Shown here in pieces: positions 4,036 through 37,760 of a DNA stretch of 64,000 nt. The notes beneath the pieces were generated by a model. The model was given only the letters and a program-made list of their open reading frames with translations, was not told the origin of the DNA and searched no databases. Both the position numbers and the translations under genes were made by a program. Every line of letters begins with the position of its first letter. Position 1 is the stretch's first letter. The DNA comes from Patescibacteria group bacterium (lineage in GTDB: Bacteria > Patescibacteriota > Patescibacteriia > JAXHNJ01): contig JAXHNJ010000003.1 in assembly GCA_034520665.1 (NCBI GenBank), forward strand, positions 11,057-75,056, given 5' to 3'.

Positions 4036-4338
4036 TTAATCAGTTAACAAGCCCCAAATAAAGGCGTAGATTAAACTATAAAATAAGAGAGAGTAAAATA
4101 TTCTTTGAGCTTTTGTTTTTGTTTTTATTATAGCATAGCTCTCCTTTTTTTCCTCTTTCCCTCCGATTATTTTTATAATATAAATAAGGCCGTAAACAAA
4201 AGTAACACCAGAGGCTATTTTAAAACATAGATTATAAGGTAATTGTCCGGCCAGACCATAAAGGACTAAAGAAAGCAGAAAAGTTAAAACAAATATTAGA
4301 AGTAAACTTAAGATCAATTTTTTTAATCTTAAAACCAT
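4036..4338 (-). CDS. small integral membrane protein
   Basis: 100 aa, three predicted TM helices; no family recognised. Confidence 0.35.
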   Translation of the reverse strand: MVLRLKKLILSLLLIFVLTFLLSLVLYGLAGQLPYNLCFKIASGVTFVYGLIYIIKIIGGKEEKKESYAIIKTKTKAQRIFYSLLFYSLIYAFIWGLLTD

Positions 4339-4343
4339 AAAGT

Positions 4344-5996
4344 TTACATTTTAACCACTTGACCCGGATTAAGGCTGTGATAATTTTTATTTTGGGATCT
4401 GGTTGATTTTTTATTTTCTTTGCTTGAATAATTTTTATTATCTTGGTGTGAAGATTTTCTCTGCTTAGCTTTTCTCCGCTTGCTTTGTTTAAAGGAAGTG
4501 GGCTCTTTACCTAAAGCTTCTTTCAATGATATTGCCTTTTTATTATCAATACTAGCTTGGGGCACAATTTTTTCTTTGCGAAAATCTACTTTAGGTTTAT
4601 TATCTTTTTTGTTATATCTTCTGTTTTTATTATAATTTTTATTATAATTTCGGTTTGTCTGATTATTGCTTTGGCTTTTTTGGGCTTCTGATTTGGCTCC
4701 GGTCCAGCGAGAAATTTTATCTTCAATTATTTCCCTTTTTTCTGAATATCTTTCCCGGGAAGTACGAATTATTTTTTCGCGGTTACCTTCCTCTTCTGTT
4801 ACTGGTGGCAAAGTAGAGGCAGAAAAAGGATCAGAAGCCACACCGTCAATCATTAGTTTTAAATAAACCTCATACTTAGTTAAATTAACTAAATCAGTCT
4901 CCGAAAAAATAGGCTCAAATTCCTTGACTAAAAATTCCGCGTCAGCAGCCCCCACCCGGAAAGCCACAATAGTGCCGACATTACCAAAAACAGCCGCCTG
5001 AACCTTTTCATCCAGCTGTTCAATATACTGATGAGCAATGGTTAAATCCAGCCGGTATTTTCTGGCCTCAGATAAAATAGTAGCAAAACTCTCGGTAGCA
5101 AAGTTCTGAAATTCATCAACATAAAGGTAAAAATCTTTTCTTTCTTCCTCAGGAACATCAATCCGACTCATAGCGGCCAGCTGAATTTTCGTCACCATCA
5201 TAGCTCCCAGTAATGAAGAATTATCCTCGCCCACTCGTCCCTTGGAAAGATTCAAAAGTAAGATTTTACCCTCATCCATAATTTCACGCATATCAATGGT
5301 GCTTTTGGGCTGGCCTACAATATTCCTGATGACCGAGCTGGATAAAAACTGCCCGACCTTATTTTGAATAGGAGAAATAGCTTCGGTACGAAACTGATTA
5401 GAATAGGCTTGATATTCATTCTTCCAAAAGGCCTTGACCACTGGATCAGTGATTTTATCCACCACTTTTTTGCGATAATTTTTATCCACCAGCAAACGAG
5501 TAACACCAAGAAGAGTGCTGCCTGGATATTCAAGCAAAGATAAAATAGTATTACGCAATAAGTATTCCAAACGCGGTCCCCAGGAATCAATCCATATTTT
5601 CTTGAAAACAGCAATTAAGCCAGAAGTAACTAAATGATGATAGGTCGGATCAACAGATTCCAAAACATTAAAAGCAATGGGATAATCTAAATCAGCCGGA
5701 TTAAAATAAACCACGTCATTAATACGATGAGAAGGAATAAACTGAATAACTCTTTCTACTAAATCACCCAGCGGATCTATTAGAGCCACTCCTTTGCCTC
5801 TATGAATATCATCTACAATCATATTTTCAATAGTGGTAGATTTTCCCATGCCGGTTTTACCAATAATATACATATGACGACGACGATCATCACTTTTAAT
5901 ACCAAACTTCCGGTTTATATTCCGAAAATTGGTCATAGCAAAAGGAGTAATCTCATTCTCCTGATTATTATTATTTTGACTATTATTGGTTGCCAT
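4344..5996 (-). CDS. FtsK/HerA/VirD4-superfamily P-loop ATPase (type IV coupling protein-like), no membrane domain, N/K-rich C-terminal tail
   Basis: 550 aa. Walker A IIGKTGMGKSTT followed by ALIDPLGDL (DPKGD/DPHGEY-like). Walker B FYLYVDEFQNF, then RKYRLDLTIAHQ...FGNVGT, typical of the TrwB/VirD4/HerA clade. The last ~130 aa are low complexity (N, K, Q, S, R). Confidence 0.6.
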   Translation of the reverse strand: MATNNSQNNNNQENEITPFAMTNFRNINRKFGIKSDDRRRHMYIIGKTGMGKSTTIENMIVDDIHRGKGVALIDPLGDLVERVIQFIPSHRINDVVYFNPADLDYPIAFNVLESVDPTYHHLVTSGLIAVFKKIWIDSWGPRLEYLLRNTILSLLEYPGSTLLGVTRLLVDKNYRKKVVDKITDPVVKAFWKNEYQAYSNQFRTEAISPIQNKVGQFLSSSVIRNIVGQPKSTIDMREIMDEGKILLLNLSKGRVGEDNSSLLGAMMVTKIQLAAMSRIDVPEEERKDFYLYVDEFQNFATESFATILSEARKYRLDLTIAHQYIEQLDEKVQAAVFGNVGTIVAFRVGAADAEFLVKEFEPIFSETDLVNLTKYEVYLKLMIDGVASDPFSASTLPPVTEEEGNREKIIRTSRERYSEKREIIEDKISRWTGAKSEAQKSQSNNQTNRNYNKNYNKNRRYNKKDNKPKVDFRKEKIVPQASIDNKKAISLKEALGKEPTSFKQSKRRKAKQRKSSHQDNKNYSSKENKKSTRSQNKNYHSLNPGQVVKM

Positions 5997-6002
5997 AAAA
6001 AT

Positions 6003-7454
6003 CTATTTAGTAAAGGGTAAGTTATTGGGCGCCACCGGTGGTTGGCCGTCCTGAGGTTGGTTTTCTTTTGTCTTGTTACTAGGACCCACTGTTTGAGGAG
6101 ATTTTTTGGGTTCGGGAGAAAAGACCTGCTGAGGCAAAGACACCGGCGGTTCACCTTTTCGAGCCTCTGTCTTTTTAACCAGCGGCGCCTTGACTGTAGA
6201 AATTGGAAAGTGAAATAAACTGGCTAACTCTTCGATATTTAAAACAAACATATTGCGGCCTCGAACACCACTCCGGTATTTATAGCCCCAAAGCAGCCTC
6301 CTTTTACGGTTATTAATTCTCCACTGAGTAATAGCTTCAATAGGCGGATAAGTTACTTTGGTTTTGGTTTTTTTGTCCCGCTTAAGACCATTTAAATCTA
6401 AGGTGTTATACTGCTTCATAGCCCCGAGGACAGCCGGGATTATTCTTTTATGGCTAAAAACTTCTTTTTCAGCAAAATAAACTACCCGTATTTTAGTGCG
6501 GAAAGCAATTTTAGATATTTTAATGCCAATAGCCTCAACTACTGCTTTTTCTGAAGGAGTTAAGTGCTGCATCATAGTCGGCCATTTCAAGCCTTCGTTT
6601 TGACTAGCCCTTTCACCAAATTCAGAAGGAGGTATTATTGAAGCAGTCAGTGATTCACTAAACCCTTTAACAAAATCACGCGGCAACCAAAATAAATCAT
6701 TACTTTTAGAGGAACTTTTAGCTCCAATCAATTTCTTGATTAAATTAATACCATTATCACGCCATTTATTGCCTTCGGGAGGAGCAATAACAAACTGCAG
6801 CCAAAGCTGTTCTCCCTGCATTAAACGGCTTAAAATTTCCAATAAAGAACCCATCGGATCTTTAAAATATTCTTTGGCCGCCGGATCTTCAAAATCACGA
6901 TAAGTTTTAATCGGATAAACTTCTTTTTTGTCTAATTTCATTTCAGCTCCATAAATATCATATTGGTCATTGGGAAATTCAACTTTAATATCTTCTGTAT
7001 AGTCCTGAACTTCCGTAATTTCAGCGTCCGGATACTGAGCGTAAATGGCTGACTCTACCATATCACGAAATTGATTGGGAGTTCTGATCAAAAATTGGAT
7101 ATATCCGCCCATACTAATTATTTCCAAAGCAAAAGCCTGCTGGTTATAGCCATGCAGCCAGCGGTCTATTTTGCTGCCTTTTTTTTGTATGCCATGAAGA
7201 TGAGAAAAAATATTTTCCACGGCCTTGGGTGTCTGTTCATTTTCTTTGGGTATATCAATAGCTAAAAGAGTAAATTCTATTTTTGAATTGTAAATATTTT
7301 TACGCCACTGAATCCAGGTCCACCAAAGTCCAAACAAAATTGCCCCTAAAATAATTACCCAACCACCATGAATAATAATATACCAAAGCATAGCTAAAGG
7401 AGCAAAATAAGAGTTACTATTTATGGGAGTAGTTAAATCAATGCTAATTTCCAT
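6003..7454 (-). CDS. membrane protein partner of the upstream ATPase (two N-terminal TM helices plus ~400 aa soluble domain)
   Basis: 483 aa. TM helices at roughly aa 18-60, Pro/Gln-rich C-terminus. Separated by 7 nt from the ATPase gene, so probably co-operonic; may supply the missing membrane anchor. Confidence 0.45.
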   Translation of the reverse strand: MEISIDLTTPINSNSYFAPLAMLWYIIIHGGWVIILGAILFGLWWTWIQWRKNIYNSKIEFTLLAIDIPKENEQTPKAVENIFSHLHGIQKKGSKIDRWLHGYNQQAFALEIISMGGYIQFLIRTPNQFRDMVESAIYAQYPDAEITEVQDYTEDIKVEFPNDQYDIYGAEMKLDKKEVYPIKTYRDFEDPAAKEYFKDPMGSLLEILSRLMQGEQLWLQFVIAPPEGNKWRDNGINLIKKLIGAKSSSKSNDLFWLPRDFVKGFSESLTASIIPPSEFGERASQNEGLKWPTMMQHLTPSEKAVVEAIGIKISKIAFRTKIRVVYFAEKEVFSHKRIIPAVLGAMKQYNTLDLNGLKRDKKTKTKVTYPPIEAITQWRINNRKRRLLWGYKYRSGVRGRNMFVLNIEELASLFHFPISTVKAPLVKKTEARKGEPPVSLPQQVFSPEPKKSPQTVGPSNKTKENQPQDGQPPVAPNNLPFTK

Positions 7455-7460
7455 ATTTGG

Positions 7461-8600
7461 TTATTTTTGTTTCAAATCTTGATCTTTTTCAATTAAAGTA
7501 TAGGTTTTATCAGGATTTTTATTAAATTTTTTAGAGTCGGATAAAGCCAGTAAAATAGTATTCTTTTTAACCATTCTTCTTTTTAAAACCCTCGCCACAA
7601 TTTCATCCCGTTTTAATGGTTGGTCAGAATTTTTTAAAACATCTTCAATAACATCAGACACCACACCAGACTGATAACCCCATTCTTTTAAAGCATAAAT
7701 ACCGCGGCCAACCAAAACATATTCGTCATTTAAAATTAATTCATTATGAACTGTTGGCGGATAGGCTTTTTTTCGGTCAAATCCGGCCTTGTTTATCAGC
7801 TCAGCAATTTTAGTAAAATGTAAGGGCTTTTCCTGTTTTTTTAAAATAATATGAATTTTATCATTTATTCTTTTTGGATTTATACTGCCCCAACTAGATA
7901 ACCCAAAATCACCATAAGGATTCATATCAATTTTTTTACTAATCCTTAAATAAGAAATTATAGCTTCATCTGATAAAACCTCATTTTCTGATTCATAGAA
8001 TTCAGTTTTTTTAAACTTTTTTATCACTTTGTCCTGGGAAATAGGCTTACCTTCTACTTTAAGGATTTCTAAAAAATTTTCTATAGATTTATCAAGAAGC
8101 TTTCGGCTGGCTGATTCTAGCTGCCATGAATCTCTTAACTTTTTATCACTAAGTGTTTCATACTTATAATCAAAAATACTCTTCATAAGAAATTTTACAG
8201 CGTTATCATTGACTTTATTATCCCCAGCATGAGATAAAAGTTTTTCATTAAAAAAATTCTTTTCCATAATACTGCCATGTTCGTGGATGAGATGAGTAAT
8301 TATACCTTCTACTTCATTAATTAAATCTTTAAATTGTGAGGATTTCTTAATTTTTTTCACTGAAGAGTTTTCAATTTGTCGAATTCTTTCCCGAGTAACG
8401 TTAAAATGATTACCAATTTCTTCCAAAGTTTCTTCTTTGTCACCGCTTAAGCCATATCGGCGCCTTAAAATATCCTCTTCTTTACTGGAAACTAACTTCA
8501 GAAGTGAAGAAACTATTTCTAGCGGATTAAAATGACTGATATCTGAAGCTTGTTTCGAGCTGAGGATCTTGTCTAAAAGACTTGAATCTTGCTCATTCAT
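7461..8600 (-). CDS. sigma-70 region 4 (N-terminal) fused to C-terminal HARE-HTH domain protein
   Basis: 379 aa. aa 40-90 EEDILRRRYGLSGDKEETLEEIGNHFNVTRERIRQIE is a textbook sigma70_r4 HTH. aa 270-330 KPLHFTKIAELINKAG...YPPTVHNELILNDEYVLVGRGIYALKEWGY matches the HARE-HTH of RNAP delta subunit. No region 2 or 3. Confidence 0.6.
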   Translation of the reverse strand: MNEQDSSLLDKILSSKQASDISHFNPLEIVSSLLKLVSSKEEDILRRRYGLSGDKEETLEEIGNHFNVTRERIRQIENSSVKKIKKSSQFKDLINEVEGIITHLIHEHGSIMEKNFFNEKLLSHAGDNKVNDNAVKFLMKSIFDYKYETLSDKKLRDSWQLESASRKLLDKSIENFLEILKVEGKPISQDKVIKKFKKTEFYESENEVLSDEAIISYLRISKKIDMNPYGDFGLSSWGSINPKRINDKIHIILKKQEKPLHFTKIAELINKAGFDRKKAYPPTVHNELILNDEYVLVGRGIYALKEWGYQSGVVSDVIEDVLKNSDQPLKRDEIVARVLKRRMVKKNTILLALSDSKKFNKNPDKTYTLIEKDQDLKQK

Positions 8601-8777
8601 ATTTTTAAATTTAATATTTATAATTAGAGATTTTAGAGAGATAAACCTCTCTTTTAAAACATAAAAATTAATTTATATCTCATCTTTAGTATAGCATACT
8701 TTTTTAATGTTGTCAAGAATATGTTATAAAATAAAAATCGCCTTAAAAGCGAGTATTTTATTAAATTTAAATAATTT

Positions 8778-9671
8778 TTAGTTTTTCCGGTGATACCAGA
8801 CCGAAAGTAAAGGTGAAGCTATAAAAATAGAAGAATAGGTGCCAATAATAACCCCAATAATTAAGGCTAATATAAAAAAACGAATACTTTCACCACCAAA
8901 TAATAGTAGAGCCAATAAAACAAGTAAGGTAGTTATAGAAGTATTAAGAGAGCGAACTATGGTCTGATTGATGCTTTTGTTTAAAATTTCATCAAAGTCT
9001 TCACTCTCACCCTTAGTCAACCCTTCCCTAACCCGGTCAAAAACTACAATCGTGTCATGTACTGAAAAACCAAGTATAGTTAACAAAGCTGTAACAAAGA
9101 ATATATCCACTTCAATATTAAAGAAAAAGCCCAAAGCAGCAAAAACACCCAGAGTAATTAATATATCATGGATCAAGGCAATAATAGCATTAAAGCCAAA
9201 TACCGGGCTATTGATATGCGAAAATTTAATTTTTCTAAAAGCCCAAGAAATATAAATAATTATACCGACTAAGACCAAGGCAATAGCTACAAACGCTTTT
9301 TGTTTTAATTCCTGTCCAATTGTCGGGCCAATAGATTCAAAGCTTTCCTCAGTCACAGGTCCGAATTTTTCTTCTAACGAAGTTATAATATTATTTCTTT
9401 CTTGATTACTTAGTGTTTTTAGGCGTAAAAGTATACTTTCTTGGCCAGATTTTTGAACTTTTATTTCTCCCAGTTCTAATTGATTTAAATTTTCACGTAT
9501 CTCATTTGTTTCTGGAATTTCATTTTTAAAATTAATCTGCATCAAAGTGCCGCCAGTAAAATCAATACCCAGTTTAAGCCCTCCCGTAAAAATAAAAAAC
9601 AAACTAATTAAAATAAGCAAACCAGAAAATATAAACCAAATTTTTTTCTTTTCAATAATTTTATACATCAT
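8778..9671 (-). CDS. secF: protein translocase subunit SecF
   Basis: 297 aa. LKLGIDFTGGTLMQINF start, six TM helices, directly downstream of secD and overlapping it by 11 nt. Confidence 0.9.
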   Translation of the reverse strand: MMYKIIEKKKIWFIFSGLLILISLFFIFTGGLKLGIDFTGGTLMQINFKNEIPETNEIRENLNQLELGEIKVQKSGQESILLRLKTLSNQERNNIITSLEEKFGPVTEESFESIGPTIGQELKQKAFVAIALVLVGIIIYISWAFRKIKFSHINSPVFGFNAIIALIHDILITLGVFAALGFFFNIEVDIFFVTALLTILGFSVHDTIVVFDRVREGLTKGESEDFDEILNKSINQTIVRSLNTSITTLLVLLALLLFGGESIRFFILALIIGVIIGTYSSIFIASPLLSVWYHRKN

Positions 9672-11331
9672 CTTTTTTTACTCCTTTTACTCCTAAAAAT
9701 GAGGGGTGTTTTTCTAAAAAATTACCGGCTATTAATCTTAAAAAGGTACGCGTAACAATAATAGCCGAAAACATAGAAATTAATATACCCACACCCAAGG
9801 TTATAGCAAAACCTTTTATTAGACTGGTGCCAAACCAGGCTAAAATAACACAGGTAATAATTGATGAAAAGTTAGAATCACGAATAGAGAGCCAGGCTCT
9901 TTTAAAGCCTTCCTCAATAGCCATATTTAAAGGTTTATCGCTCTCTAACTCTTCTTTAATCCTTTCAAAAATCAAAACATTCGCATCAACCGCCATCCCA
10001 ATGGATAATATAAAACCAGCCACCCCGGCTAAAGTCAATGTGATTGACCAAAGTTTAAAAATCGCGACTACTAAAAGCGTATAAATAGCTAAAGCAAAAA
10101 CTGAAATCAAACCAGGCAGACGATAATAAATAATCATAAATAGAGCTAAAAAAGCTAAACCAAGCAAGGCGGCAAAGAAACTTTTCTGAACCGAAATTTT
10201 ACCCAAAGAAGCCCCTATATTCTGCTGGCTAATTAAAGTAATGGGCACTGGCAAAGCCCCCGAATTTAAACGTTGGGCTAATTCCTTAGCCTCGGTCACA
10301 CTAAATTCACCGGTAATAACAGCTTTACCATCAGGTATTTTTTCATTAACCCGAGGCATGGATATAGGAGAACCGTCGAGATAAATACCGACTATATTCC
10401 CGATATTTTCCTCTGTTATCTGAGCAAACAATTCTTTGCCTTCATCATTAAATTCTAAAGCTACCTGAGCTTCTCCGGTTTGGTTATTAAACTGCAAATA
10501 AGCTTTTTCTAATTGCTGGCCGGAAAGTCCGGTATTTATCAGGCCCTGATTGGTTTGATAATCAGCTTCTGATTTCTTTTTTATAAGTATATGAGAAGCC
10601 TTAACCTCTTTATTTTCACCTTCTCCTTTTTCTTCCGTCTTTAAAATGATATGGTAGCCAAAATCAGTCTCTACTAATTCCGGATAAACCTGGCCTATTT
10701 TGGCCTTTTCAAAAATAGCTTGTTCAAAAGCCGGTACCATTTCTCCTTTTTTGAAAAAGCCTAAATCCCCTCCCTGTTCCTGACTACCTGGATCTTCACT
10801 TTTTTCCTTGGCCAGAGTAGAAAAATTTTCAGGGGTGGCCTGGTCTAATATTTCTTGAGCTTTATTTTTGGCTTCCTCATTATACTCTTCAATTTTTTGC
10901 TTTTGTTCTGGAGTTAATTCAACCGGCGGCGGTTGTTTTTTAAATTCAAGCAAAGGTGTTTTACCGATCATTTCCACGGCTTGATTAACCTCTGTTACTC
11001 CAGGTAACTCCACAATAACCCGCCAGTCATCTCCGGATTTATTAGTTTGAACAACTGGCTCAGAAACCCCAAAAGTATTAACTCTTCTCTCAATAACATC
11101 ACGGACCCCTTCTAAGGCGCTAGCTTTTTCAGCTTCTTCTATTTTAGAGGTATCGGCCTGATAGACTAAATGAGTCCCTCCCTGTAGATCAAGACCTAAA
11201 TGAATTTTTAATTCCTTAAAATAAGAGCCAATTTTTATATCTGGCCCGGCCGGATAATCAACTATACCCGCTAAAACAGCTAGTATAATTATACCGATAA
11301 ATGTCAGCCAAATTTTCTTTCTAATATTCAT
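9661..11331 (-). CDS. secD: protein translocase subunit SecD with parvulin (PpiC-type PPIase) insertion in the periplasmic domain
   Basis: 556 aa. LGLDLQGGTHLVYQAD SecD signature and C-terminal six-TM bundle. Inserted between LLEFKK and the P1 head is GGDLGFFKKGEMVPAFEQAIFEKAKIGQVYPELVETDFGYHIILK (parvulin core) followed by VKASHILIKKK (normally the first strand of a parvulin). Confidence 0.88.
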   Translation of the reverse strand: MNIRKKIWLTFIGIIILAVLAGIVDYPAGPDIKIGSYFKELKIHLGLDLQGGTHLVYQADTSKIEEAEKASALEGVRDVIERRVNTFGVSEPVVQTNKSGDDWRVIVELPGVTEVNQAVEMIGKTPLLEFKKQPPPVELTPEQKQKIEEYNEEAKNKAQEILDQATPENFSTLAKEKSEDPGSQEQGGDLGFFKKGEMVPAFEQAIFEKAKIGQVYPELVETDFGYHIILKTEEKGEGENKEVKASHILIKKKSEADYQTNQGLINTGLSGQQLEKAYLQFNNQTGEAQVALEFNDEGKELFAQITEENIGNIVGIYLDGSPISMPRVNEKIPDGKAVITGEFSVTEAKELAQRLNSGALPVPITLISQQNIGASLGKISVQKSFFAALLGLAFLALFMIIYYRLPGLISVFALAIYTLLVVAIFKLWSITLTLAGVAGFILSIGMAVDANVLIFERIKEELESDKPLNMAIEEGFKRAWLSIRDSNFSSIITCVILAWFGTSLIKGFAITLGVGILISMFSAIIVTRTFLRLIAGNFLEKHPSFLGVKGVKKDDV

Positions 11332-11426
11332 AACTTGCTAGTTATTATACACTATTTTATAAACATTGCCAATAAGAAAAGAGGTTTTTAAAGTATAAAG
11401 ACCCCTTTTCTTTTTTAGTATTTAAA

Positions 11427-11549
11427 TCTATTTCTTCTTTCGGCATTTTCTAGTGGTTTTCCTTTTCCTAGTAGTTTTTTTTCGACCTGGTTTTCTTTTT
11501 GCTTTCTTTTTGGTACTTCTTTTTTTCTTGATTTTTCTTTTTCTTGGCA
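11427..11549 (-). CDS. possible 40-aa polybasic peptide (MPRKRKIKKKRSTKKKAKRKPGRKKTTRKRKTTRKCRKKK)
   Basis: ATG preceded by a strong SD (AGGGGGTGAgcttaATG), located between the Gmad2 gene and secD. Caveat: it lies in a polypurine tract that is stop-free by composition. Confidence 0.25.
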
Positions 11550-29351: not shown

Positions 29352-31085
29352 ATGTTAAATAACAAAAAACTCAAAGAAATTTTACTGAAAAGAAAAGCAA
29401 TCAACAAAGAAGATCTGGAAAAAGCCCTAAAAAAAGCCAAAAATAAAAACAAGCCCTTAGCCAATTATTTACTGGATAATAATTTAGTTTCTGAGGAAGT
29501 CATCTATGAATCAATGGCTAAGGAATTTAATATTCCTTTTGTTGATCTTAAAGATCGGGTTATTCGAAAAGATATTCTCAATCTAATACCAGAGCCGATC
29601 GTACAGGTTCATAAAATTGTCGCTTTTGAAAAAACAGATAAAGGCTTAAAAATTGCTTGTCTGGATCCGGAAGATATCCAGACTTTTGAATTTATCGAGA
29701 AAAAAACTGATCTTAAGCCGATTATCCATATTACCACCCCGGAAAGTATAAAGTCAGTTTTAAAACAATACCATAAGGGTTTAAAAGCTGAATTCAAAGA
29801 TATTAAAGGAAAAAAAGACAAAGCAAGCGGCCCGGTTCAGGAAAAGGATTTAAAAAAATTAGCAGAAGACCTGCCAGTAGTTAGAATAATTGATACTATT
29901 TTAGAATATGCTATTTATGAAAATGCTTCTGATATACATATTGAACCAACTGAAAAAGAAACTATAATCCGCTATCGCATAGATGGAATATTGCGAGATG
30001 TTATGACTTTGCCCAAGAATGTTCAGTCAGGAGTAGTGGCCAGAATTAAAATATTATCAAATTTAAAAATAGACGAGCACCGCTTACCTCAAGACGGACG
30101 TTTTAAAATTAATACTGAAAATCAGAAAGTTTCTTTTCGAGTTTCCATTATTCCAGTTTTTGACGGAGAAAAAATTGTTTTAAGACTTTTGCGTGAATCT
30201 GCTCAAGTATTAACCTTGGAACAACTTGGCTTTTTAAAAAAACCGCTCGAAATTGTTAAAAATAATATCAAAAAGCCCCATGGTGTTATTCTAGTTACCG
30301 GACCTACTGGCAGCGGTAAAACCACTACTCTTTACTCTATTTTGAATATCTTAAATAAACCCAAGGTCAATATCTCAACCATCGAAGATCCGGTTGAGTA
30401 CCGCATGCCCCGACTTAATCAGAGCCAGGTTAATCCAAAAATAGGATTTACTTTTGCTGCTGGTCTTCGTTCGCTCCTTCGCCAAGACCCTAATATTATA
30501 ATGGTGGGTGAAATTCGGGATAAAGAAACCGCTGAAATCGCCGTCCACTCAGCTATGACCGGTCATCTGGTTCTCTCTACTCTTCACACCAATGACGCGG
30601 CCACTACTCTGCCCCGATTAACTAAGATGGGAGTGCCTTCTTTTTTAATTGCTTCAACTACTAATGTCATAATTGCCCAAAGATTAGTTAGAAAAATATG
30701 TCTGGGTTGTATTGAAAGTTATACTTTGACTAAAAAAAATATAAAAGAACTGGAAAAACAGGTTAACTTTAAAAAGGTTTTAGAGGCTCTGGAAAAAGAA
30801 GGAGCCATAGTCTCAGCTGATCAGGACTTAGATTCTTTACTTTTTTACAGAGGTAAAGGTTGTAAGAAATGCAATGGTGAGGGCTATAAAGGCCGTATTG
30901 GTATCTATGAGGTTTTGCCTAATACTGAAGCTATTCAAAAAATTATTTTAGAAGGCGGATCAGCCGAGGATATACATAGAAAAGCTGTGGAAGAAGGTAT
31001 GATCACTGTTACTAATGACGGGTTTTATAAAGCCAAAACTGGTATTACCACCATTGAAGAGGTATTAAGAGTAACCCAGGAATAA
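29352..31085 (+). CDS. pilB: type IV pilus assembly ATPase PilB (GspE family)
   Basis: 577 aa. N-terminal GspII_E_N-like region, Walker A VTGPTGSGKTTT, Asp/His boxes, tetracysteine motif (CLGC...CKKC). Confidence 0.9.
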   Translation: MLNNKKLKEILLKRKAINKEDLEKALKKAKNKNKPLANYLLDNNLVSEEVIYESMAKEFNIPFVDLKDRVIRKDILNLIPEPIVQVHKIVAFEKTDKGLKIACLDPEDIQTFEFIEKKTDLKPIIHITTPESIKSVLKQYHKGLKAEFKDIKGKKDKASGPVQEKDLKKLAEDLPVVRIIDTILEYAIYENASDIHIEPTEKETIIRYRIDGILRDVMTLPKNVQSGVVARIKILSNLKIDEHRLPQDGRFKINTENQKVSFRVSIIPVFDGEKIVLRLLRESAQVLTLEQLGFLKKPLEIVKNNIKKPHGVILVTGPTGSGKTTTLYSILNILNKPKVNISTIEDPVEYRMPRLNQSQVNPKIGFTFAAGLRSLLRQDPNIIMVGEIRDKETAEIAVHSAMTGHLVLSTLHTNDAATTLPRLTKMGVPSFLIASTTNVIIAQRLVRKICLGCIESYTLTKKNIKELEKQVNFKKVLEALEKEGAIVSADQDLDSLLFYRGKGCKKCNGEGYKGRIGIYEVLPNTEAIQKIILEGGSAEDIHRKAVEEGMITVTNDGFYKAKTGITTIEEVLRVTQE

Positions 31086-31092
31086 AAATAAT

Positions 31093-32307
31093 ATGACACT
31101 TTTTAAATACTCTGCCAGTACCAAAACTGGTAAAAAAGTAAAAGGCCAAAAAAAGGTCGAAAATAAAACAGAACTAGTTGATTATCTTAAGTCCCAGAAT
31201 TTAACTTTGACTTCTTCAGAAAAAAAAGAAAAAAAATCACAAGACTTGAATTCCTTTTTAAGTAAATTTGAACGAATTAAACTAACTGAAAAAATATTTT
31301 TTGTTAATAACCTGGAAGTCATGATGCGCTCAGGCTTTTCTATTGGTAAAGCTTTAGATGTTATTGCCGAGCAAACAAAATCAAAAAAATTAACTAATAT
31401 TCTTCATCAATTAAAAGAAAACGTAGAAAGTGGTCAGTCTTTTGCTGAAGCTCTAAAAGAACATAAAAAAGTTTTTGGCGAATTATTTATCAATATGATC
31501 GCCGCTGGTGAGGCTTCCGGGCAATTAGATGAAGTTCTCAAAAAACTTAAAATACAGATGAAAAAAGACCATACTTTAGTTTCAAAGGTTAAGGGGGCCT
31601 TAACTTATCCGATTATTGTAGTCTTAGCTATGATTGGCGTCGGTATTGCTATGATGGTTTTTGTCATACCCCAACTAACTACCGTTTTTGAAGAATCAGG
31701 GGCTGAATTACCTTTAATCACCCGCCTGCTTATAGGTCTAAGTTATTTTATTGTTGCCAATGGTTTGTGGTTAGTCATTGGTTTAGTTCTAATTGTAATC
31801 TTGCTTTTTCGTTTTAAAAAAACAAAAAAAGGCCAAAAAATATTTCATAAAATAAATTTGAAAATACCCATATTTTCCCCGATTGTAAAAAAAGTTAACT
31901 TAGCCCGTTTTTCCCGGTCACTGCATTCTCTTTTAAAAACCGACATTCCGATTGTTAAATCATTTGAAATTATAGCCAGAGTTTTAGGAAATATATATTA
32001 TCGAAATGCTGTTAATGAAGCGGCTGAAAAATTAAAAAAGGGTGTCTCCGTAAAAAAATCTCTGGAAAAATATCCGGACCTTTTCACGCCAGTGATTCTA
32101 CAAATGATATCGGTCGGTGAAGAAAGCGGTAATTTAGACACTATCACTGAGGAAATTTCTAATTTTTATGAAGAAGAAATAGACCAAACTATGGATAATT
32201 TATCTACTATTATAGAACCGGTTCTAATGCTGCTTTTAGGCGCCGGCGTAGCCGGCATGGCCGCGGCCATAATTTTACCAATTTATTCACTCTCGGAAGC
32301 TATTTAA
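31093..32307 (+). CDS. pilC: type IV pilus platform protein PilC (GspF family)
   Basis: 404 aa. Two T2SSF repeats, three TM helices. Confidence 0.88.
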   Translation: MTLFKYSASTKTGKKVKGQKKVENKTELVDYLKSQNLTLTSSEKKEKKSQDLNSFLSKFERIKLTEKIFFVNNLEVMMRSGFSIGKALDVIAEQTKSKKLTNILHQLKENVESGQSFAEALKEHKKVFGELFINMIAAGEASGQLDEVLKKLKIQMKKDHTLVSKVKGALTYPIIVVLAMIGVGIAMMVFVIPQLTTVFEESGAELPLITRLLIGLSYFIVANGLWLVIGLVLIVILLFRFKKTKKGQKIFHKINLKIPIFSPIVKKVNLARFSRSLHSLLKTDIPIVKSFEIIARVLGNIYYRNAVNEAAEKLKKGVSVKKSLEKYPDLFTPVILQMISVGEESGNLDTITEEISNFYEEEIDQTMDNLSTIIEPVLMLLLGAGVAGMAAAIILPIYSLSEAI

Positions 32308-33261
32308 ATGAAAGATCAAAGTAAAAAAAAGGGTTTTACCCTGATAGAATCCTTAGTGGCTATTTTTGTTATGTCTTTACTTATTTTTATCTATGCTAAT
32401 ACAACCTATTATATCCGCCTGGCCACTGAACTTAAACAAACTATCCAAGCTTATAACATTGCTCAGGAAGAAATCGAAGCCTTAAGATTTTTACCTTTCT
32501 CTTCTCTGACCAATCAAACAGAAGGAAATTTTTTAAATGTGCTCTATAATCAAGGTCAATGGCAAGTCAATCAAAATGGTTCTAACAATTATTATGAAAC
32601 CTTTTCACAGGATATTTCTGATCTAACCAGCCAAGCATTATTACCTCTTTCAGGCTTAAGTGATTTTGATCTGGAAACCGATATATACATAGATTCTGAT
32701 TCACCAGCCAATTGGTCGACTGGTTTTTTCATTCGAGCCCAGGACAAAAATAACAATTATAAAATTATTTTTAACTCTGATAATTTTTATTTTTATAAAA
32801 CCGTATCCGGAGTAGAAACAGAAATTTTTTCTACTTCTCTGCCTACCACCACTGACAGCTGGAATACTTATAAAATCTCAGCTAACAGTAATAACTTTGA
32901 ATTTTTCCGCAACTCAACTTCTATCGGTACAGCCAATGACCCGGATACTATTTTTGATAGTGGTAAAATTTCTTTAATTGGCATAAATGGTATAAAAGCC
33001 CGATTTGATAATGTTAAAATAAATTCAAGCCTTGTTGATAACGGAGATTTTTCTTCCGGTCCTCTTGGCGAGGTAGCACAAAATTGGCAATGGTTAAGTC
33101 TTTATTCTTTACCCCAGGCCAAAGCTCAGTTAACAATTTCTGATTACTCTTCAAATCCTAATATCAAACAAGTTATTGCTGAAATTGAATGGCAGTCCCC
33201 ACAGAAAACAAAAAATATAAGCCTAGAAACATTAATAAGTAAATATGGTATACATGAATAA
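32308..33261 (+). CDS. prepilin-type N-terminal cleavage/methylation domain protein (pilin/pseudopilin with large C-terminal domain)
   Basis: 317 aa. Class III signal KKGFTLIESLVAIFVMSLL (G/FTLIE). Confidence 0.7.
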   Translation: MKDQSKKKGFTLIESLVAIFVMSLLIFIYANTTYYIRLATELKQTIQAYNIAQEEIEALRFLPFSSLTNQTEGNFLNVLYNQGQWQVNQNGSNNYYETFSQDISDLTSQALLPLSGLSDFDLETDIYIDSDSPANWSTGFFIRAQDKNNNYKIIFNSDNFYFYKTVSGVETEIFSTSLPTTTDSWNTYKISANSNNFEFFRNSTSIGTANDPDTIFDSGKISLIGINGIKARFDNVKINSSLVDNGDFSSGPLGEVAQNWQWLSLYSLPQAKAQLTISDYSSNPNIKQVIAEIEWQSPQKTKNISLETLISKYGIHE

Positions 33262-33805
33262 AAAAAAGGGCATGACTCTTGCTGAAATGCTAATTTCTAT
33301 TTCTATTATCTCAATTGTAGCCCTTGTTTTATCATTATTAATAATTTCTTCTTATTCAATTGTTCGCATCCAGCGCTCTTACCTTAATTTACAACAGGAG
33401 AGCACTAGTGCTTTAAAAAATATTTCAAATTCTTTAAATCTTTCCAGTGAAATAGTTAATTATCCTCAATCAACTCCTACCTATTATTCTAATAAAAATA
33501 CTCTGGCCTTAAAAATAAATGCCATAGACGAGGCCAATACTCCCCTAGAAAGCACTTATGATTATTTTATATATTATCTGGAAGATAACCAGTTAAAATT
33601 AAAAATTGACGCTGATCCTCTTAGTACTGGACGAGAAGATAAGGTAAAAGTTATCAGTACTTTTGTCGATAATGTAATTTTTCGATATAATGAAGTTGAT
33701 CCGGTTAACGCCAATTATGTTTCAATTACCTTAATAGCCTCTGACACGATTGGTAATCAGAAAAAAGAAACCATTTTTCAAACAAGTTCTTATTTAAGAA
33801 ATTAA
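33245..33805 (+). CDS. prepilin-type pseudopilin
   Basis: 186 aa. KKGMTLAEMLISISII prepilin peptidase motif. Confidence 0.7.
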   Translation: MVYMNKKKGMTLAEMLISISIISIVALVLSLLIISSYSIVRIQRSYLNLQQESTSALKNISNSLNLSSEIVNYPQSTPTYYSNKNTLALKINAIDEANTPLESTYDYFIYYLEDNQLKLKIDADPLSTGREDKVKVISTFVDNVIFRYNEVDPVNANYVSITLIASDTIGNQKKETIFQTSSYLRN

Positions 33806-33808
33806 GCT

Positions 33809-35614
33809 ATGAATAATAAAGGACAAATTTTAGCCATAGTCGTTACTTTTTTAGGAGTTTCTGTTTTATTAACAGCCGTCCTAATAAGTTTTATTATTGG
33901 TAACAACTATATTGTCCAGAAAAGATACCAGCAAAAAATAGCCTTTAATTTAGCTGAGGCCGGTATTGACAAAGCTATTGAAGAAATCAATCAAGATAGC
34001 AGTTTCAGCGGTGAAAATGTTGATCTTGACTTGGGTTCTTTTTCCAACAATGTTACCAGCTTATCCGGTAATACTATGCAAATTGAATCCACTGGTTATT
34101 ATCCTTCGGCGGCCCAGGCAAAGACTTCTAAAACCGTGCGAGCACAAATAGAATTAAACACTGATGACGTGGCCTTTCACTATGGCGTTCAGGTTGGTGC
34201 CGGCGGAATTGCCATGGCTAATAATTCTGAAATTTTCGGTAATGTTTATTCCAATGGAAACATCACTGGTTCAGGGATAATAAACGGTACTGCTCAAGTG
34301 GCCACTGGCTCTCAGTTCAGCTATTCGCATGAAGTCCAAAGCTTAGGTGTTGATGGCCAGCAGGTTTTTGGCCAGGCCTCGCCGGTCCTTGATTTAGCCC
34401 AAAGTTTTAAGGTGGATCAGGAAGCGCCGATCGCCCAGGTGGCCCTAAAATTAAAAAAAAGATGTAATAATCCAGCCCAGTGTCCGCCAAATTTAACCTT
34501 AAGAATTTTAGGCGATGACAACGGCTCGCCAGATAAAAACAATGTTCTTGCTTCAGGAATTTTATATGCCAGCCAAGTTTCAAGAAACGATTTCGGCTGG
34601 ATTAATATTACCTTAACCTCTAACCCAATTTTGAGTGCTGACACTACTTACTGGCTGATGCTGGATACTTCGGCTAATGCCAATCGTTACTGGTGGTGGG
34701 CTAAAGACAAAAATCAGGGCTATGGCAATGGCCTGGCTAAGTATTCACCAAACTGGGATGACACCAATCCTTTATGGACGGAAATAATCGGAGATTTAAA
34801 TTTTCAAATTTATTTGGGCACTAACTCTACTTATCTGGACGGTCCGGCCGTAAATGATGATGTTTTTGCCTACGAAATAAAAAATTCAAATATAAGCGGC
34901 GAGGCTTATTATACTTTCATTGATTCAGCCAGTCGAGTGCAGGGTTCTCCCTGTCCGAATGAATACTGCCATCCGGACACACCGGCCCCACCTTTGTCTA
35001 ATCTCCCTATTTCCGAGGTCAATATTCTTGATTGGAAAAAAGAGGCCGAAGCCGGTGAAACTATTGAAGGTGATTATAGTCTTTCCGGCACCACCGCTCT
35101 GGGACCAGCCGTTATAAATGGAAATCTAACCATTGAAATAAACGCTGTATTAGAGCTGACCGGCACGGTTTATGTCAAGGGCGATATCAGCATTATCAAT
35201 AACGCGCAAATATACCTAGCCTCTGAATATGGCTCTTTAAGCGGCTTAATTATCGCTGATGGCAAAATTGATGTCCAAAACAATGTCTTTTTCTGCGGTT
35301 CTGGCTATTCGACCGGTCCAACTTGCGACACCAGCAACAATAGTTTTATTATGCTTCTCTCCACCAGTGATAAGGCTACTGACAGCGATCCAGCTATTGA
35401 TGTCATGAACAACGCCAAAGCGGTAATTTTTTACGCCGGTCAAGGCGCTATCAAAATGCATAATAACGCCGGTGTTTATGAAGCAACGGCTTATAAACTG
35501 ATACTTGAGCAAAACGCCACGGTTGAATACGATCACGGCTTGGCCAATGCCAGCTTCTCTTCCGGGCCCGGTGCTAGCTGGGCTTTGAAAAAAGGCACCT
35601 GGCAGGTATACTAA
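33809..35614 (+). CDS. large type IV pilus-associated protein (PilX/minor-pilin-like N-terminus)
   Basis: 601 aa. A single N-terminal TM/pilin-like helix with no G-1 cleavage motif, followed by a long Ser/Thr/Asn/Gly-rich beta-rich region. Placed between the pseudopilins and pilM. Confidence 0.4.
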   Translation: MNNKGQILAIVVTFLGVSVLLTAVLISFIIGNNYIVQKRYQQKIAFNLAEAGIDKAIEEINQDSSFSGENVDLDLGSFSNNVTSLSGNTMQIESTGYYPSAAQAKTSKTVRAQIELNTDDVAFHYGVQVGAGGIAMANNSEIFGNVYSNGNITGSGIINGTAQVATGSQFSYSHEVQSLGVDGQQVFGQASPVLDLAQSFKVDQEAPIAQVALKLKKRCNNPAQCPPNLTLRILGDDNGSPDKNNVLASGILYASQVSRNDFGWINITLTSNPILSADTTYWLMLDTSANANRYWWWAKDKNQGYGNGLAKYSPNWDDTNPLWTEIIGDLNFQIYLGTNSTYLDGPAVNDDVFAYEIKNSNISGEAYYTFIDSASRVQGSPCPNEYCHPDTPAPPLSNLPISEVNILDWKKEAEAGETIEGDYSLSGTTALGPAVINGNLTIEINAVLELTGTVYVKGDISIINNAQIYLASEYGSLSGLIIADGKIDVQNNVFFCGSGYSTGPTCDTSNNSFIMLLSTSDKATDSDPAIDVMNNAKAVIFYAGQGAIKMHNNAGVYEATAYKLILEQNATVEYDHGLANASFSSGPGASWALKKGTWQVY

Positions 35615-35618
35615 TAAT

Positions 35619-36662
35619 ATGTTTAAATTAAATCCATTTAAAAACTCGTTTGGCCTTGATTTATCGGAAGATGCTATCCGGTTGGTTAAAATTGATAAAA
35701 AGAAAAAAAAATTAATTAGTCTTAATGAAGAAAATATAGAGCCTGGAATTATTGAAGATGGTGAAATTAAAGAAGAAAAAAAATTAAAAAAATATATAAG
35801 TAAATTAATAGAAAAACCACATGGTCATAAATTAAGAACCAAATTTGTTCACTGCGGTATACCGGAAAGAAAAACTTTTATCAAATTAATAGAAGTAAAT
35901 AATCGCCACAAGTCTAGTCTTTCCGAAGCTATTAAATGGGAAGCTTCACAACATATTCCTTTTAGTCCGGATAAAATTTATCTTGATTGGAATATTATTA
36001 AAACAAAAAATGCTAACAATAACGCCAGCGTACTTGTCGGAGCCGCTCCCAAAATAATTATTGATTCATATTCTAAAATCATAAATTCAGTAAATTTAAC
36101 CCCATTATCTTTTGAAATGGAATCCGTAGCCACTATCCGTGCGATAATTGCTCAAAATAATAAAATTTCCCAAACAACTTTAGTTATAGATTTAGGCGGT
36201 AATCACACAAACTTAATAATTTTTGACAGAAATTCAATCCAATTTTCATCCTCACTTACATTTTCCGGTGAAAAAATAACAAAAAAAATTATGGAGAAGC
36301 TTAAAATAAACAGAGAAGATGCTGAAAAACTTAAAATACTTTACGGGCTTGAGAAAAAAAAGGGCAAGGGTAAAATAAGAAAGGTCATAGAACCTGAATT
36401 TAATAAATTAACAGATAAAATAAACGAAATTGAAAGCTTCTATATAAATCATTTTCCTCATAGTAATAAAATTAAAGATATTATTCTTTGCGGCGGTGGC
36501 TCTCAGCTAAAATATCTTCCTCAACTTATCAGTCATAAAACTAAAAAATCCACCATCCTAGCTAATCCACTAAACTATCTCAATTCTGATAAAAAAATTA
36601 AAAATATTATTAAGAAAAACTCACCTTCATTTACCACCGCTATTGGTCTGGCTCTAAAATAA
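35619..36662 (+). CDS. pilM: type IV pilus assembly protein PilM
   Basis: 347 aa. Actin-like ATPase fold markers (FGLDLSEDAIRLVKI at the N-terminus, ILCGGGSQL). Confidence 0.75.
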   Translation: MFKLNPFKNSFGLDLSEDAIRLVKIDKKKKKLISLNEENIEPGIIEDGEIKEEKKLKKYISKLIEKPHGHKLRTKFVHCGIPERKTFIKLIEVNNRHKSSLSEAIKWEASQHIPFSPDKIYLDWNIIKTKNANNNASVLVGAAPKIIIDSYSKIINSVNLTPLSFEMESVATIRAIIAQNNKISQTTLVIDLGGNHTNLIIFDRNSIQFSSSLTFSGEKITKKIMEKLKINREDAEKLKILYGLEKKKGKGKIRKVIEPEFNKLTDKINEIESFYINHFPHSNKIKDIILCGGGSQLKYLPQLISHKTKKSTILANPLNYLNSDKKIKNIIKKNSPSFTTAIGLALK

Positions 36663-36670
36663 ATATATTT

Positions 36671-37240
36671 ATGATTAAATTAAATCTACTTTCAAATCAA
36701 AAGAAGAAAGAACTTAAAGAGTACAAAATTCTTAACACCTTTAGAATAGCTTCTTATTTGGTTATAGTTTTTTTAGTTTTGATCATTATGTCTTTGTATG
36801 GCGTTAGTTATTATCTTAGTAACCAGGTAAAAGAAATTAGTGATAAAAATGAAGCTAGTCAAAATAGACAGTCACAAGAAGGTAATATTAGTTATTCAAA
36901 AACAATATCTGAAATAAATAGTGATATTCAAGATATAAAAAAAATACAATCTGATTATATAATTTTTTCCGATTATCTTAAAGATTATACCAAGATAATC
37001 CCCTCTGATCTGAAGCTTACAAATCTGAGTGTAAATAACGAAACTAATCTTATACAAATAAAAGGTCTGGCTCCTACCCGCGAGGTTTTTTTGCAATTTA
37101 AAACAAATTTGGAAAACTCTAATCTCATTAAAGAAATAGATTCTCCCATTTCAAATTTAATAAAAAAAGTTAATGTGGATTTTACTATTAGTGGAAAAAT
37201 GATATTAGACAGTTATAATATCAACAATTATGAAATTTAA
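36671..37240 (+). CDS. pilN: type IV pilus assembly protein PilN
   Basis: 189 aa. IKLNLL N-terminal motif, single TM, coiled coil; follows pilM. Confidence 0.6.
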   Translation: MIKLNLLSNQKKKELKEYKILNTFRIASYLVIVFLVLIIMSLYGVSYYLSNQVKEISDKNEASQNRQSQEGNISYSKTISEINSDIQDIKKIQSDYIIFSDYLKDYTKIIPSDLKLTNLSVNNETNLIQIKGLAPTREVFLQFKTNLENSNLIKEIDSPISNLIKKVNVDFTISGKMILDSYNINNYEI

Positions 37241-37760
37241 AGAAATAAAATTAATTTATACGGCTGTTTTATTAGGAGCTATTATAGCTGTCTATATTTT
37301 TTTAGTAATGCCTTTAAGATCATCAATAAGTCAAACCAGACAAAATCTGCAAAATCAAAAAATAACCCAAGAAATACTTAAAAACCGTTCAGAGAATATT
37401 AGCACTTATAAAAAAGATATTGAGGAAATTAAGACTAAAAAAAACCGTTTAGAAGATATGTTTATAAGCTCCGAAAAACAAATTGATTTTTTCCGGCAAT
37501 TAGAGAATGTTGCCAAAGATTTAAACTTAAACTTAAATTATACCCTTGAGCAAACTTCTAATAATAAAGATAATATAAAAACCGTTAATCTAAAGATTAA
37601 ACTTGACGGAGCCTATACTGATAATCTTAAATACCTAGCTTCATTAGAGGCTTTACCTTATTATATTAAAACTAGTAATATTAGCTTTACCAATAGTAAT
37701 AATTCTAATATCACCGTCAATATTCAAGCAATAACTTATTGGCAAAACAATGAAAATTAA
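37230..37760 (+). CDS. pilO: PilO-like bitopic pilus assembly protein
   Basis: 176 aa. N-terminal TM plus coiled coil, position after pilN. Confidence 0.45.
   Translation: MKFKEIKLIYTAVLLGAIIAVYIFLVMPLRSSISQTRQNLQNQKITQEILKNRSENISTYKKDIEEIKTKKNRLEDMFISSEKQIDFFRQLENVAKDLNLNLNYTLEQTSNNKDNIKTVNLKIKLDGAYTDNLKYLASLEALPYYIKTSNISFTNSNNSNITVNIQAITYWQNNEN

Follow-up and report, generated by a model that had tools for sequence, protein, structure and literature searches.

A T4CP-like ATPase and a DUF8128 membrane protein encoded by adjacent genes of Patescibacteria correspond to the two halves of one coupling protein

Two adjacent genes on contig JAXHNJ010000003.1, from the AT-rich metagenome-assembled genome (MAG) of a member of the Patescibacteria (candidate phyla radiation, CPR), are shown here by sequence comparison to be the two halves of one type IV secretion system (T4SS) coupling protein (T4CP), which would have originated by fission of a T4CP of the monoderm-plasmid type. 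All positions refer to the 64,000-nt stretch of this contig that was analyzed (hereafter the window). The open reading frame (ORF) listing gives two co-directional minus-strand ORFs, 6003..7454 (483 amino acids, aa) followed by 4344..5996 (550 aa), with which the independent gene calls of the source contig agree; the gap from the stop codon of the first to the start codon of the second (TAG ATT TTT ATG) is 6 nt, and not 7 nt as given in the original prediction for this stretch. The first gene encodes a DUF8128 (PF26449) subunit, the membrane-anchored N-terminal half of the coupling protein, the second a soluble T4CP-like ATPase with a nucleotide-binding domain, an all-alpha domain and a basic, disordered tail. 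That the two might form a split coupling-protein-like pair had been proposed before, and T4CP profiles, the predicted fold and co-linear fused homologues now support it; the recognition of the two adjacent genes as halves of one coupling protein is new here.

The fused homologues were found in Bacillota as well as in other CPR bacteria. When plasmids were searched by tblastn with the membrane protein, one match was obtained, in a Pontibacillus replicon; there the DUF8128-like part of an ORF runs directly into RHVYVSGMTGVGK, a Walker A motif, and two insertions precede the remainder of the ATPase. The DUF8128 profile aligns with this ORF at 97.9% probability (E 3.7e-13, 357 columns). With the ATPase as query, 355 plasmid records were retrieved. 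Within an 870-aa protein of the Peribacillus plasmid NZ_CP068052.1, residues 48-329 correspond to DUF8128 (96.6% probability, E 7e-10) and residues 327-745 to the ATPase (99.9%, E 1e-34). A search with this protein returned many Bacillota proteins of 800-900 aa, combining PF26449 with PF01935, PF10412 or PF01580, and also proteins of 750-1050 aa from CPR Gracilibacteria/Peregrinibacteria, combining PF26449 with PF10412, PF02534 or PF12696. One of the latter, P0507 from Gracilibacteria (825 aa), matches DUF8128 over residues 5-355 (99.4%, E 1e-21) and the ATPase over residues 359-783 (100%, E 2.5e-140, 57% identity). The domain order of the fused Bacillota and CPR proteins is the same as the gene order in the window, i.e. 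DUF8128 and then the ATPase; the fused CPR forms begin with a single transmembrane (TM) helix and the Bacillota forms have none. The gene boundary in the window thus falls into the inter-domain linker of an otherwise single-chain protein, which argues for gene fission and for the pair acting as a unit. Judging from these alignments, some CPR classes have the split module and others the fused one. Note that a 1,016-aa fusion in another Patescibacteria locus (CAYYYA010000020.1) was rejected as an artefact, as a masked run of N (~6555-6757) bridges the two genes there. Readthrough of the TAG codon between the two in-frame genes was also discarded, the gap lengths elsewhere not being consistently multiples of three.

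The junction itself is recognizable in the split form. The end of the DUF8128 domain carries the motif N-x-EELA-x-x-x-HFP (aa 406-417; 6204..6239, minus strand), which corresponds to the inter-domain junction of the fused homologues. N406, E408, E409, L410, A411, H415, F416 and P417 are invariant in 62 sequences, and the pattern is present in 74 of 80 related loci (the comparison set kept from a one-genome-per-species scan, in which at least 577 relatives were found). The motif aligns with VELAGFAHLP in Pontibacillus, EEMAAIMRLP in Peribacillus and NELSGLVHLP in P0507, each time just before the ATPase part. It is followed by VKAP...EPPxxLP, by a variable linker and by a terminal P-x-N-L-P (aa 476-480; 6015..6029, minus strand), which ends the disordered linker of aa 424-483. 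P476, N478, L479 and P480 are conserved to at least 90%, and the PxNLP motif, which may act in docking, is C-terminal in 61 of the 80 loci.

The genes around the fused homologues of Bacillota point to a conjugative ancestry. The Peribacillus fused gene is located between primase and replication-relaxation genes, followed by conjugal-transfer, TcpE and lytic transglycosylase/C40 genes. The Pontibacillus copy lies ~7 kb from a cluster comprising a pilin-like gene (Mbov_0395 family), a CD1110-family VirB4 gene and an M23 peptidase gene; a 'sigma factor-like' gene near this copy was considered and found to be unrelated to the sigma-70 region 4 (sigma-r4)/HARE-HTH protein encoded next to our pair (see below). 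On a linear plasmid of Embleya, the gene string is PrgI, XF1762, an ATP-binding protein, an 812-aa T4CP, replication-relaxation and NlpC/P60. The N-terminus of the Embleya T4CP matches DUF8128 only weakly (8% probability), so that the fused family is demonstrated, by profile alignment, for Bacillota and CPR and not for Actinomycetota. The T4SS of CPR bacteria is of the monoderm MPF-FATA type (PMC12102498), which the plasmid contexts of the fused genes fit.

The likeness to these proteins has its limits. Peribacillus psychrosaccharolyticus WP_051387410.1 (annotated as 'DUF87 domain-containing protein') is homologous to both halves and co-linear with them, with EEMAAIMRLP at the junction where the window's protein has EELASLFHFP; however, it is a single polypeptide without an N-terminal TM helix, it is plasmid-borne beside transfer genes, and its ATPase identity is ~30%. 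The fused CPR orthologues (P0507, P0477, P0484, P0489, P0501) share with the window's pair a core chromosomal context, but they are single chains with other neighbours (RuvX, pilin-like).

Several observations were made on these replicons. The Pontibacillus sp. ALD_SL1 'plasmid' (NZ_CP062975.1) is circular, 897,839 bp in size, and encodes PBP, ClpX, a tubulin-like protein, SSB, a full flagellar set, ribonucleotide reductase and a T4SS. Its fused T4CP gene is interrupted by insertions of ~255 nt and ~1.5 kb and its ribonucleotide reductase gene by one of ~320 nt; these may be introns or inteins. The closest non-CPR match of the ATPase is a 395-aa ATPase-only protein (41% identity over 381 aa) encoded on the Sulfitobacter mediterraneus plasmid NZ_CP081110.1 (7001-8128 of the extracted locus), with no DUF8128 gene beside it and with transposase genes after it; this gene may be a horizontally acquired fragment. 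In the Gracilibacteria contig JAQTWV010000001.1, the fused gene (9001-11478 of the extracted locus) is ringed by several prepilin-type (N_methyl) proteins with leucine-rich repeat domains, and translation of this locus under table 11 does not give the recorded protein, as would be expected if the lineage had an alternative genetic code.

The ATPase (4344..5996, minus strand) possesses the features of a T4CP motor. Its Walker A motif GKTGMGKST (aa 46-54; 5835..5861, minus strand) aligns with the TrwB P-loop GATGTGKS, and the stretch from the Walker B motif YLYVDE (aa 290-295) through R312 (5061..5129, minus strand) aligns with IDE...GRK of TrwB; this alignment, together with knowledge of TrwB, makes R312 the putative arginine finger. 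All motifs quoted earlier as typical for the TrwB/VirD4/HerA clade are present, i.e. besides Walker A also LIDPLGD (aa 72-78), YLYVDEFQNF (aa 290-299), R312 and Q323. These motifs are invariant in 57 homologues, with G46, K47, T48, G49, G51, K52, D294, E295, R312 and K313 fixed, all catalytic residues included. No hydrophobic segment was detected in the protein (Kyte-Doolittle), in agreement with the prediction that it has no membrane domain. The profile search proposed earlier as a check gave three Pfam matches above the cut-off: TrwB_AAD_bind (PF10412; 36 bits, cut-off 20.5; aa 35-348), DUF87 (26.5 bits, cut-off 23.2) and TraG-D_C (PF12696; 24.7 bits, cut-off 22). The NCBIfam matches are all sub-threshold (TraD, CedD, TrbC and VirB4 models), the HerA profile of PADLOC was matched at 5.7e-9, and TrwB and DotL were the only sequence matches in the PDB.

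The AlphaFold2 model of the ATPase (57 sequences, pLDDT 72) consists of a RecA-like core, a helical block and a disordered tail. The block (aa 117-227; 5316..5648, minus strand) represents an all-alpha domain that interrupts the nucleotide-binding domain, and is modelled as helices 117-134, 141-156, 163-181, 185-219 and 221-227. The top Foldseek match of the model is TrwB (E 4.8e-12, TMt 0.62, ~412 columns, identity ~15%), followed by DotL (6.3e-11), a HerA chain (4d2i, 6.7e-10), Cag-beta (8.7e-10) and VirB4 (~4e-7). In profile-profile alignment (hhalign), TrwB was matched at 94% probability (E 9e-8, 265 columns) with the P-loop, the DE of Walker B and R312/K313 (against GRK) in register. TrwB of R388, VirD4, TraD and DotL share with the window's ATPase the nucleotide-binding and all-alpha fold, the aligned Walker A, Walker B and arginine finger motifs and a variable C-terminal extension. 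TrwB differs in that it has its own two-helix anchor and no DUF8128, and that its gene is located on a plasmid beside those for a relaxase and a T4SS.

Other families of this superfamily fit less well. The VirB4 protein TrwK aligns with the ATPase at 1.9% probability and there is no match to PF03135. A best match to FtsK or an ABC ATPase, named in advance as the result that would speak against a coupling protein, was not obtained: the FtsK_SpoIIIE model (PF01580) reached 16 bits, below its cut-off of 24, and matched the P-loop only, whereas neither the gamma nor the four-TM (4TM) domain of FtsK was matched. The matches to HerA-type defence or repair ATPases are at the level of the P-loop, and the neighbours of the gene encode the sigma-r4/HARE-HTH protein, DUF8128, a small membrane protein and a histidine kinase. 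By profiles and predicted fold, the ATPase is therefore closest to the T4CPs rather than to VirB4, FtsK or HerA. One T4CP feature, the N-terminal anchor, is missing from its own chain; since this anchor is on the separate DUF8128 protein, we call the pair a split variant.

The DUF8128 subunit was less well known. On the source contig this gene product is annotated with PF26449, as are almost all of 120 listed homologues; the family comprises more than 2,742 clusters at 90% identity, and its profile finds 3,128 clusters at 50% identity (E ≤1e-3). The protein has no match in NCBIfam or PADLOC, and a literature search found no paper on DUF8128. Its hydrophobic anchor (aa 17-48; 7311..7406, minus strand; Kyte-Doolittle) is directly followed by basic residues (WRKNIYNSK). 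In the AlphaFold2 model (62 sequences, pLDDT 79.5, pTM 0.73), a TM helix leads into an alpha/beta domain (aa 61-413), and the C-terminus is disordered, with pLDDT below 50 over aa 424-449. Two N-terminal TM helices had been predicted; with a single hydrophobic stretch, one long modelled helix (aa 18-58) and a single TM helix in the fused CPR homologues, one is more likely. According to the positive-inside rule, the N-terminus would probably be outside and the large domain in the cytoplasm. The large soluble domain described as unknown is indeed there, but can now be named as DUF8128, the N-terminal domain of the fused homologues.

When the DUF8128 model was compared with the PDB using Foldseek, the only significant matches were 12 TrwK/VirB4 chains (E 3.8e-5 to 2.3e-3, probability 0.96-1.0; next match E >0.02), with low TM-scores of 0.29-0.33. 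Sequence and profile methods gave no support for a likeness to VirB4, whether DUF8128 profiles were run against PDB sequences, narrow and broadened profiles were aligned with TrwK by hhalign, or 62 members were scanned with Pfam up to E 10. A VirB4-like N-terminal fold in DUF8128 is therefore a lead from model comparison, and that the matched part of VirB4 is its N-terminal domain is our reading. VirB4 (TrwK of R388) has the same architecture as DUF8128 plus ATPase, i.e. an N-terminal domain and then the ATPase; however, the ATPase half is here T4CP-like and not VirB4-like. If the likeness were true, a T4CP lineage would have kept the two-domain architecture of VirB4, a testable idea on the kinship of VirB4 and VirD4.

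A separately encoded anchor has been proposed for another T4CP. For the pIP501 proteins TraI and TraJ, the proposal is that a soluble T4CP ATPase is anchored by a small TM protein encoded by its own gene (PMC12857230). From its description, TraI of pIP501 is small and is predicted to have two TM domains; unlike DUF8128, it lacks a large domain.

Variable C-terminal extensions are common in T4CPs, e.g. TraD and DotL. The tail of the window's ATPase, considered before as atypical for T4CPs, is thus less unusual than was claimed; its low complexity was correctly described, while its length is 115 aa (aa 436-550; 4347..4691, minus strand) rather than ~130 aa. It is composed of 21% K, 15% N, 12% S and 8% Q, has a net charge of +23 and is predicted to be disordered (pLDDT below 50) apart from one short helix (aa 491-496). 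Among close homologues, two short conserved motifs stand out, I-S-L-x-E-A-L (aa 489-495; 4512-4532, minus strand; I489, S490, L491 and A494 conserved) and L-x-P-G-Q-V-V-x-[FM] (aa 542-550; 4347-4373, minus strand; terminal PGQVV conserved). The tails of 57 orthologues measure 84-351 aa, with 11-29% K+R. Most of them contain a CxxC...CxxC motif that is absent from the ATPase of the window; in P0213 this motif corresponds to the treble-clef zinc finger PF23477. By analogy with the C-termini of other T4CPs, the tail may be an appendage for recruitment or nucleic-acid binding.

The pair is conserved far beyond this genome. Within the comparison set, the ATPase gene directly follows the DUF8128 gene in 58 loci (median gap 4 nt; downstream sequence of 1.5 kb or more is available for 73 loci). 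The sigma-r4/HARE-HTH gene is immediately upstream of the DUF8128 gene in 43-45 of the 80 loci (ABY1) and also in Nomurabacteria (5400-6545 of locus L082), and the upstream order secD, secF, (sigma-r4/HARE-HTH) is kept across loci. A complete Nomurabacteria genome has the identical order YkuD/FG-GAP gene, secD, secF, sigma/HARE, DUF8128, ATPase. Compared with the proteins of the window, the ATPase core has a median identity of 65% across these loci, SecD one of 54%, SecA 53%, SecF 47% and DUF8128 40%. The fused orthologues of Peregrinibacteria follow the genes for L9 and RuvX, and one Gracilibacteria copy is found among prepilin-like genes. Synteny and sequence conservation show the pair to be a vertically inherited and strongly constrained core chromosomal module of Patescibacteria and not a part of a mobile element. 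Note that many Patescibacteria MAG loci from co-assembly projects (L008, L009, L017, L026, L030 and others) are titled 'uncultured Gammaproteobacteria bacterium', one as Acutalibacteraceae and one as Candidatus Binatia; these titles are unreliable for taxonomy.

Published data on CPR bacteria bear on the function. Quinonero-Coronel et al. found 5,713 VirD4-like T4CPs in 2,918 of 3,035 CPR genomes, with only 148 of them near virB4, and VirB4 in 2,417 genomes; they suggest exaptation of T4CPs. In S. epibionticum, SEML1_0293 (921 aa) has T4CP domains at residues 402-719 and a P-loop fold at 361-795, is encoded directly downstream of SEML1_0294 (sigma-r4 + HARE-HTH), and is flagged as 'core family' and 'Patescibacteria enriched' (Wang et al. 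2023). Judged by synteny and domain layout, SEML1_0293 is probably the fused Saccharimonadia orthologue, and its N-terminal 360 aa are, by position, length and synteny, probably DUF8128. As in the window it follows the sigma-r4/HARE-HTH gene; unlike the window's pair it is a single chain. SEML1_0294, annotated as RpoS, is essential and CPR-enriched, and SEML1_0096 is a canonical essential FtsK with 4TM, alpha, motor and gamma domains (Wang et al. 2023). A second T4CP-like protein of this organism, SEML1_0142 (1,019 aa, 'TraM recognition domain-containing', P-loop 381-800, no Pfam listed), is core, CPR-enriched and essential.

With moderate confidence, we favour the view that a monoderm-type T4CP of the VirD4/TrwB family was split by gene fission and became a core module, a membrane-tethered motor that moves a polymer, probably nucleic acid, likely together with a T4SS. 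The DUF8128 subunit would tether the ATPase to the membrane and contact it via the junction segment NxEELAxLxHFP...EPPxxLP, which in the fused homologues joins both halves covalently. The ATPase would form a TrwB-like hexamer, whose NTP hydrolysis would serve to recruit and thread the polymer. Nucleic acid is the most likely cargo, as the motor has its T4CP ancestry next to relaxase-like genes, possesses an all-alpha domain and a tail with a net charge of +23, and has orthologues with a zinc finger. The substrate would then be handed to a membrane conduit, most plausibly the chromosomal MPF-FATA-type T4SS of the phylum, encoded elsewhere in the genome. We infer both the cargo and the partner channel from these likenesses. 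The T4SS is essential but the probable orthologue in Saccharimonadia is not, so that the class of substrates served by the module would be conditional or accessory and would not account for the essential function of the T4SS.

Several findings weigh against this view. Neither the window nor the 80 loci nor the Peregrinibacteria/Gracilibacteria contexts showed a T4SS, relaxase or channel gene near the pair; the association with a T4SS (VirB4) or relaxase that is expected of a T4CP was seen for the fused Bacillota and Embleya homologues. The ATPase gene is non-adjacent in ~15 of the 73 loci with enough downstream sequence; nine of these belong to a single clade, in which another downstream string is conserved. 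A sequence conservation this high is not usual for conjugative T4CPs. From the counts of 2,918 and 2,417 genomes, at least about 500 CPR genomes would have a T4CP homologue without a detected T4SS. Finally, SEML1_0293 was non-essential at all three time points of transposon sequencing (normalised reads 5817, 2940 and 1372, a drop of about four-fold over two passages), whereas T4SS genes were essential (Wang et al. 2023), and SEML1_0142 may be the true coupling partner of the T4SS.

Alternatively, the split, T4CP-derived motor would have been exapted for a T4SS-independent housekeeping role, for example in the handling or import of nucleic acids at the membrane (competence, type IV pilus, host nucleic acid) or in a process linked to the sigma-r4/HARE-HTH protein. 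We regard this as possible, though not probable. T4CP homologues occur in more CPR genomes than VirB4 does and are seldom near virB4, and exaptation was raised by the authors of that survey; the ATPase core is better conserved than SecA or SecD; and the sigma-r4/HARE-HTH gene, which is essential in S. epibionticum, is an old neighbour, being found in ABY1, Nomurabacteria and, by annotation, Saccharimonadia. The dispensability of SEML1_0293 next to an essential T4SS and an essential SEML1_0142, the Gracilibacteria copy amid prepilin-type (N_methyl) genes, the basic tail and the zinc finger in orthologues would suit such a role as well, as would host RNA uptake by a cultivated member of the phylum, reported in a 2026 preprint that leaves the route unresolved. 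However, no alternative conduit is encoded beside the pair, a hexamer would supply only ~six TM helices, and the neighbours vary with the CPR class (sigma/HARE, RuvX, pilin-like), so that no single partner is implied. Furthermore, all characterised relatives work with a T4SS. Deletion of comEC in S. epibionticum abolished competence with viability kept (according to the text of a review), which is uninformative on this motor. A bolder reading, in which the domesticated coupling protein is a near-universal, highly constrained core machine that recognises nucleic acid and pumps it over the membrane of the symbiont (e.g. as energising or receptor component in the acquisition of host RNA or DNA via the essential T4SS or the pilus) and a VirB4-like DUF8128 links the VirB4 and VirD4 families, strikes us as improbable.

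Two further explanations can be given very little credit. Membership of the FtsK/HerA superfamily, the membrane tether, the long low-complexity region and the high conservation of a core gene would be compatible with a substitute or paralogue of the FtsK/SpoIIIE chromosome translocase acting at cell division, and some fused Bacillota homologues also match PF01580; but with the sub-threshold P-loop match and the missing gamma and 4-TM domains described above, a far better structural and profile match to TrwB, and a canonical essential FtsK in S. epibionticum, where the probable orthologue of our ATPase is non-essential, we consider this highly unlikely. Scarcely more credible are two options already considered in the original prediction, an integrated conjugative element in decay and a defence ATPase (HerA or MADS-like). 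The ancestry on conjugative plasmids, the PADLOC matches to mad8 (9.5e-14) and HerA and the HerA structures among the Foldseek matches could be cited for them. Yet both ORFs are intact with invariant catalytic residues, GC content and skew at the pair resemble those of the flanks, composition is even across the window, and the pair occupies the same chromosomal position in 80 species-level genomes and across classes, which leads us to reject a remnant. As for defence, the PADLOC matches reflect the shared P-loop fold, i.e. support at the level of the superfamily, and DUF8128 has none; the neighbourhood contains neither an integrase nor a relaxase, a nuclease, Sir2 or another partner of a defence system.

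Much of bacterial diversity belongs to Patescibacteria, which depend on host cells for their living, and the passage of macromolecules between symbiont and host is a standing question; in S. epibionticum, the only species open to genetics, the T4SS is essential. With the pair described here, the thousands of orphan VirD4-like genes that the 2025 survey noted far from virB4 gain an anatomy, that of a two-subunit protein with a DUF8128 partner that descends from the T4CPs of monoderm plasmids. If the pair is only an accessory T4CP, this is a useful annotation and no surprise.

The pair is part of a minus-strand gene string that encodes, in order, the sigma-70 region 4 + HARE-HTH protein, the 483-aa and 550-aa proteins, a 100-aa membrane ORF, a histidine kinase with two response regulators, a 238-aa ORF and cysS. 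The conserved first gene of the string (7461..8600, minus strand; Pfam) encodes the 379-aa sigma-r4/HARE-HTH protein. Consensus scans gave a terminator-like hairpin 3' of secF (8738-8752, minus strand) and a promoter-like site TTGACA-17-TATACT with TG extension (8688-8716, minus strand). They suggest the sigma/HARE gene as the first of the transcription unit; evidence of this kind is weak, however, and promoter-like sites in the region are overall no commoner than in shuffled sequences. The synteny raised the possibility of a functional link to SecDF, which was downgraded in view of these two sites after secF and of the other neighbours of the fused CPR orthologues. The 100-aa ORF (4036-4338, minus strand), with three to four hydrophobic segments, is located between the ATPase gene (gap 5 nt) and the histidine kinase gene (gap 3 nt); it has no homologue in the 80 loci and no family match above threshold. 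No conserved gene was found 3' of the ATPase gene in the 80 loci; only this genome has the kinase, the response regulators and the 100-aa ORF there. The two-component system does adjoin the pair in the window, as had been noted, but this occurs in none of the 80 related loci and appears incidental.

The remainder of the window is housekeeping chromosome (secD, secF, secA, murC/G/D, ftsW, mraY, murB, pyrG, the gene for ribosomal protein L9, rhamnose biosynthesis). A Pfam scan of ~50 ORFs of the window revealed no VirB4, VirB6, PrgI, T4SS pilin or relaxase, in accordance with the earlier statement that no other T4SS components are present, and neither tRNA genes nor Rfam matches were detected in the window. 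SecD (9661-11331, minus strand) carries an inserted PPIase domain (Rotamase, PF00639/PF13616), as it does in the Nomurabacteria genome (2716-4380 of locus L082). A type IV pilus cluster on the plus strand (29352-37760) contains pilB, pilC, two N_methyl pilin-like genes, pilM, pilN and pilO. One of its N_methyl genes bears a lectin/3-keto-disaccharide hydrolase-like domain, and a 601-aa ORF without Pfam match (33809-35614) is located ahead of pilM. A fused CysN-like GTPase and APS kinase for sulfate activation (59849-61660, plus strand) adjoins glycosyltransferase genes and may serve the sulfation of envelope glycans in this CPR bacterium with a reduced genome.

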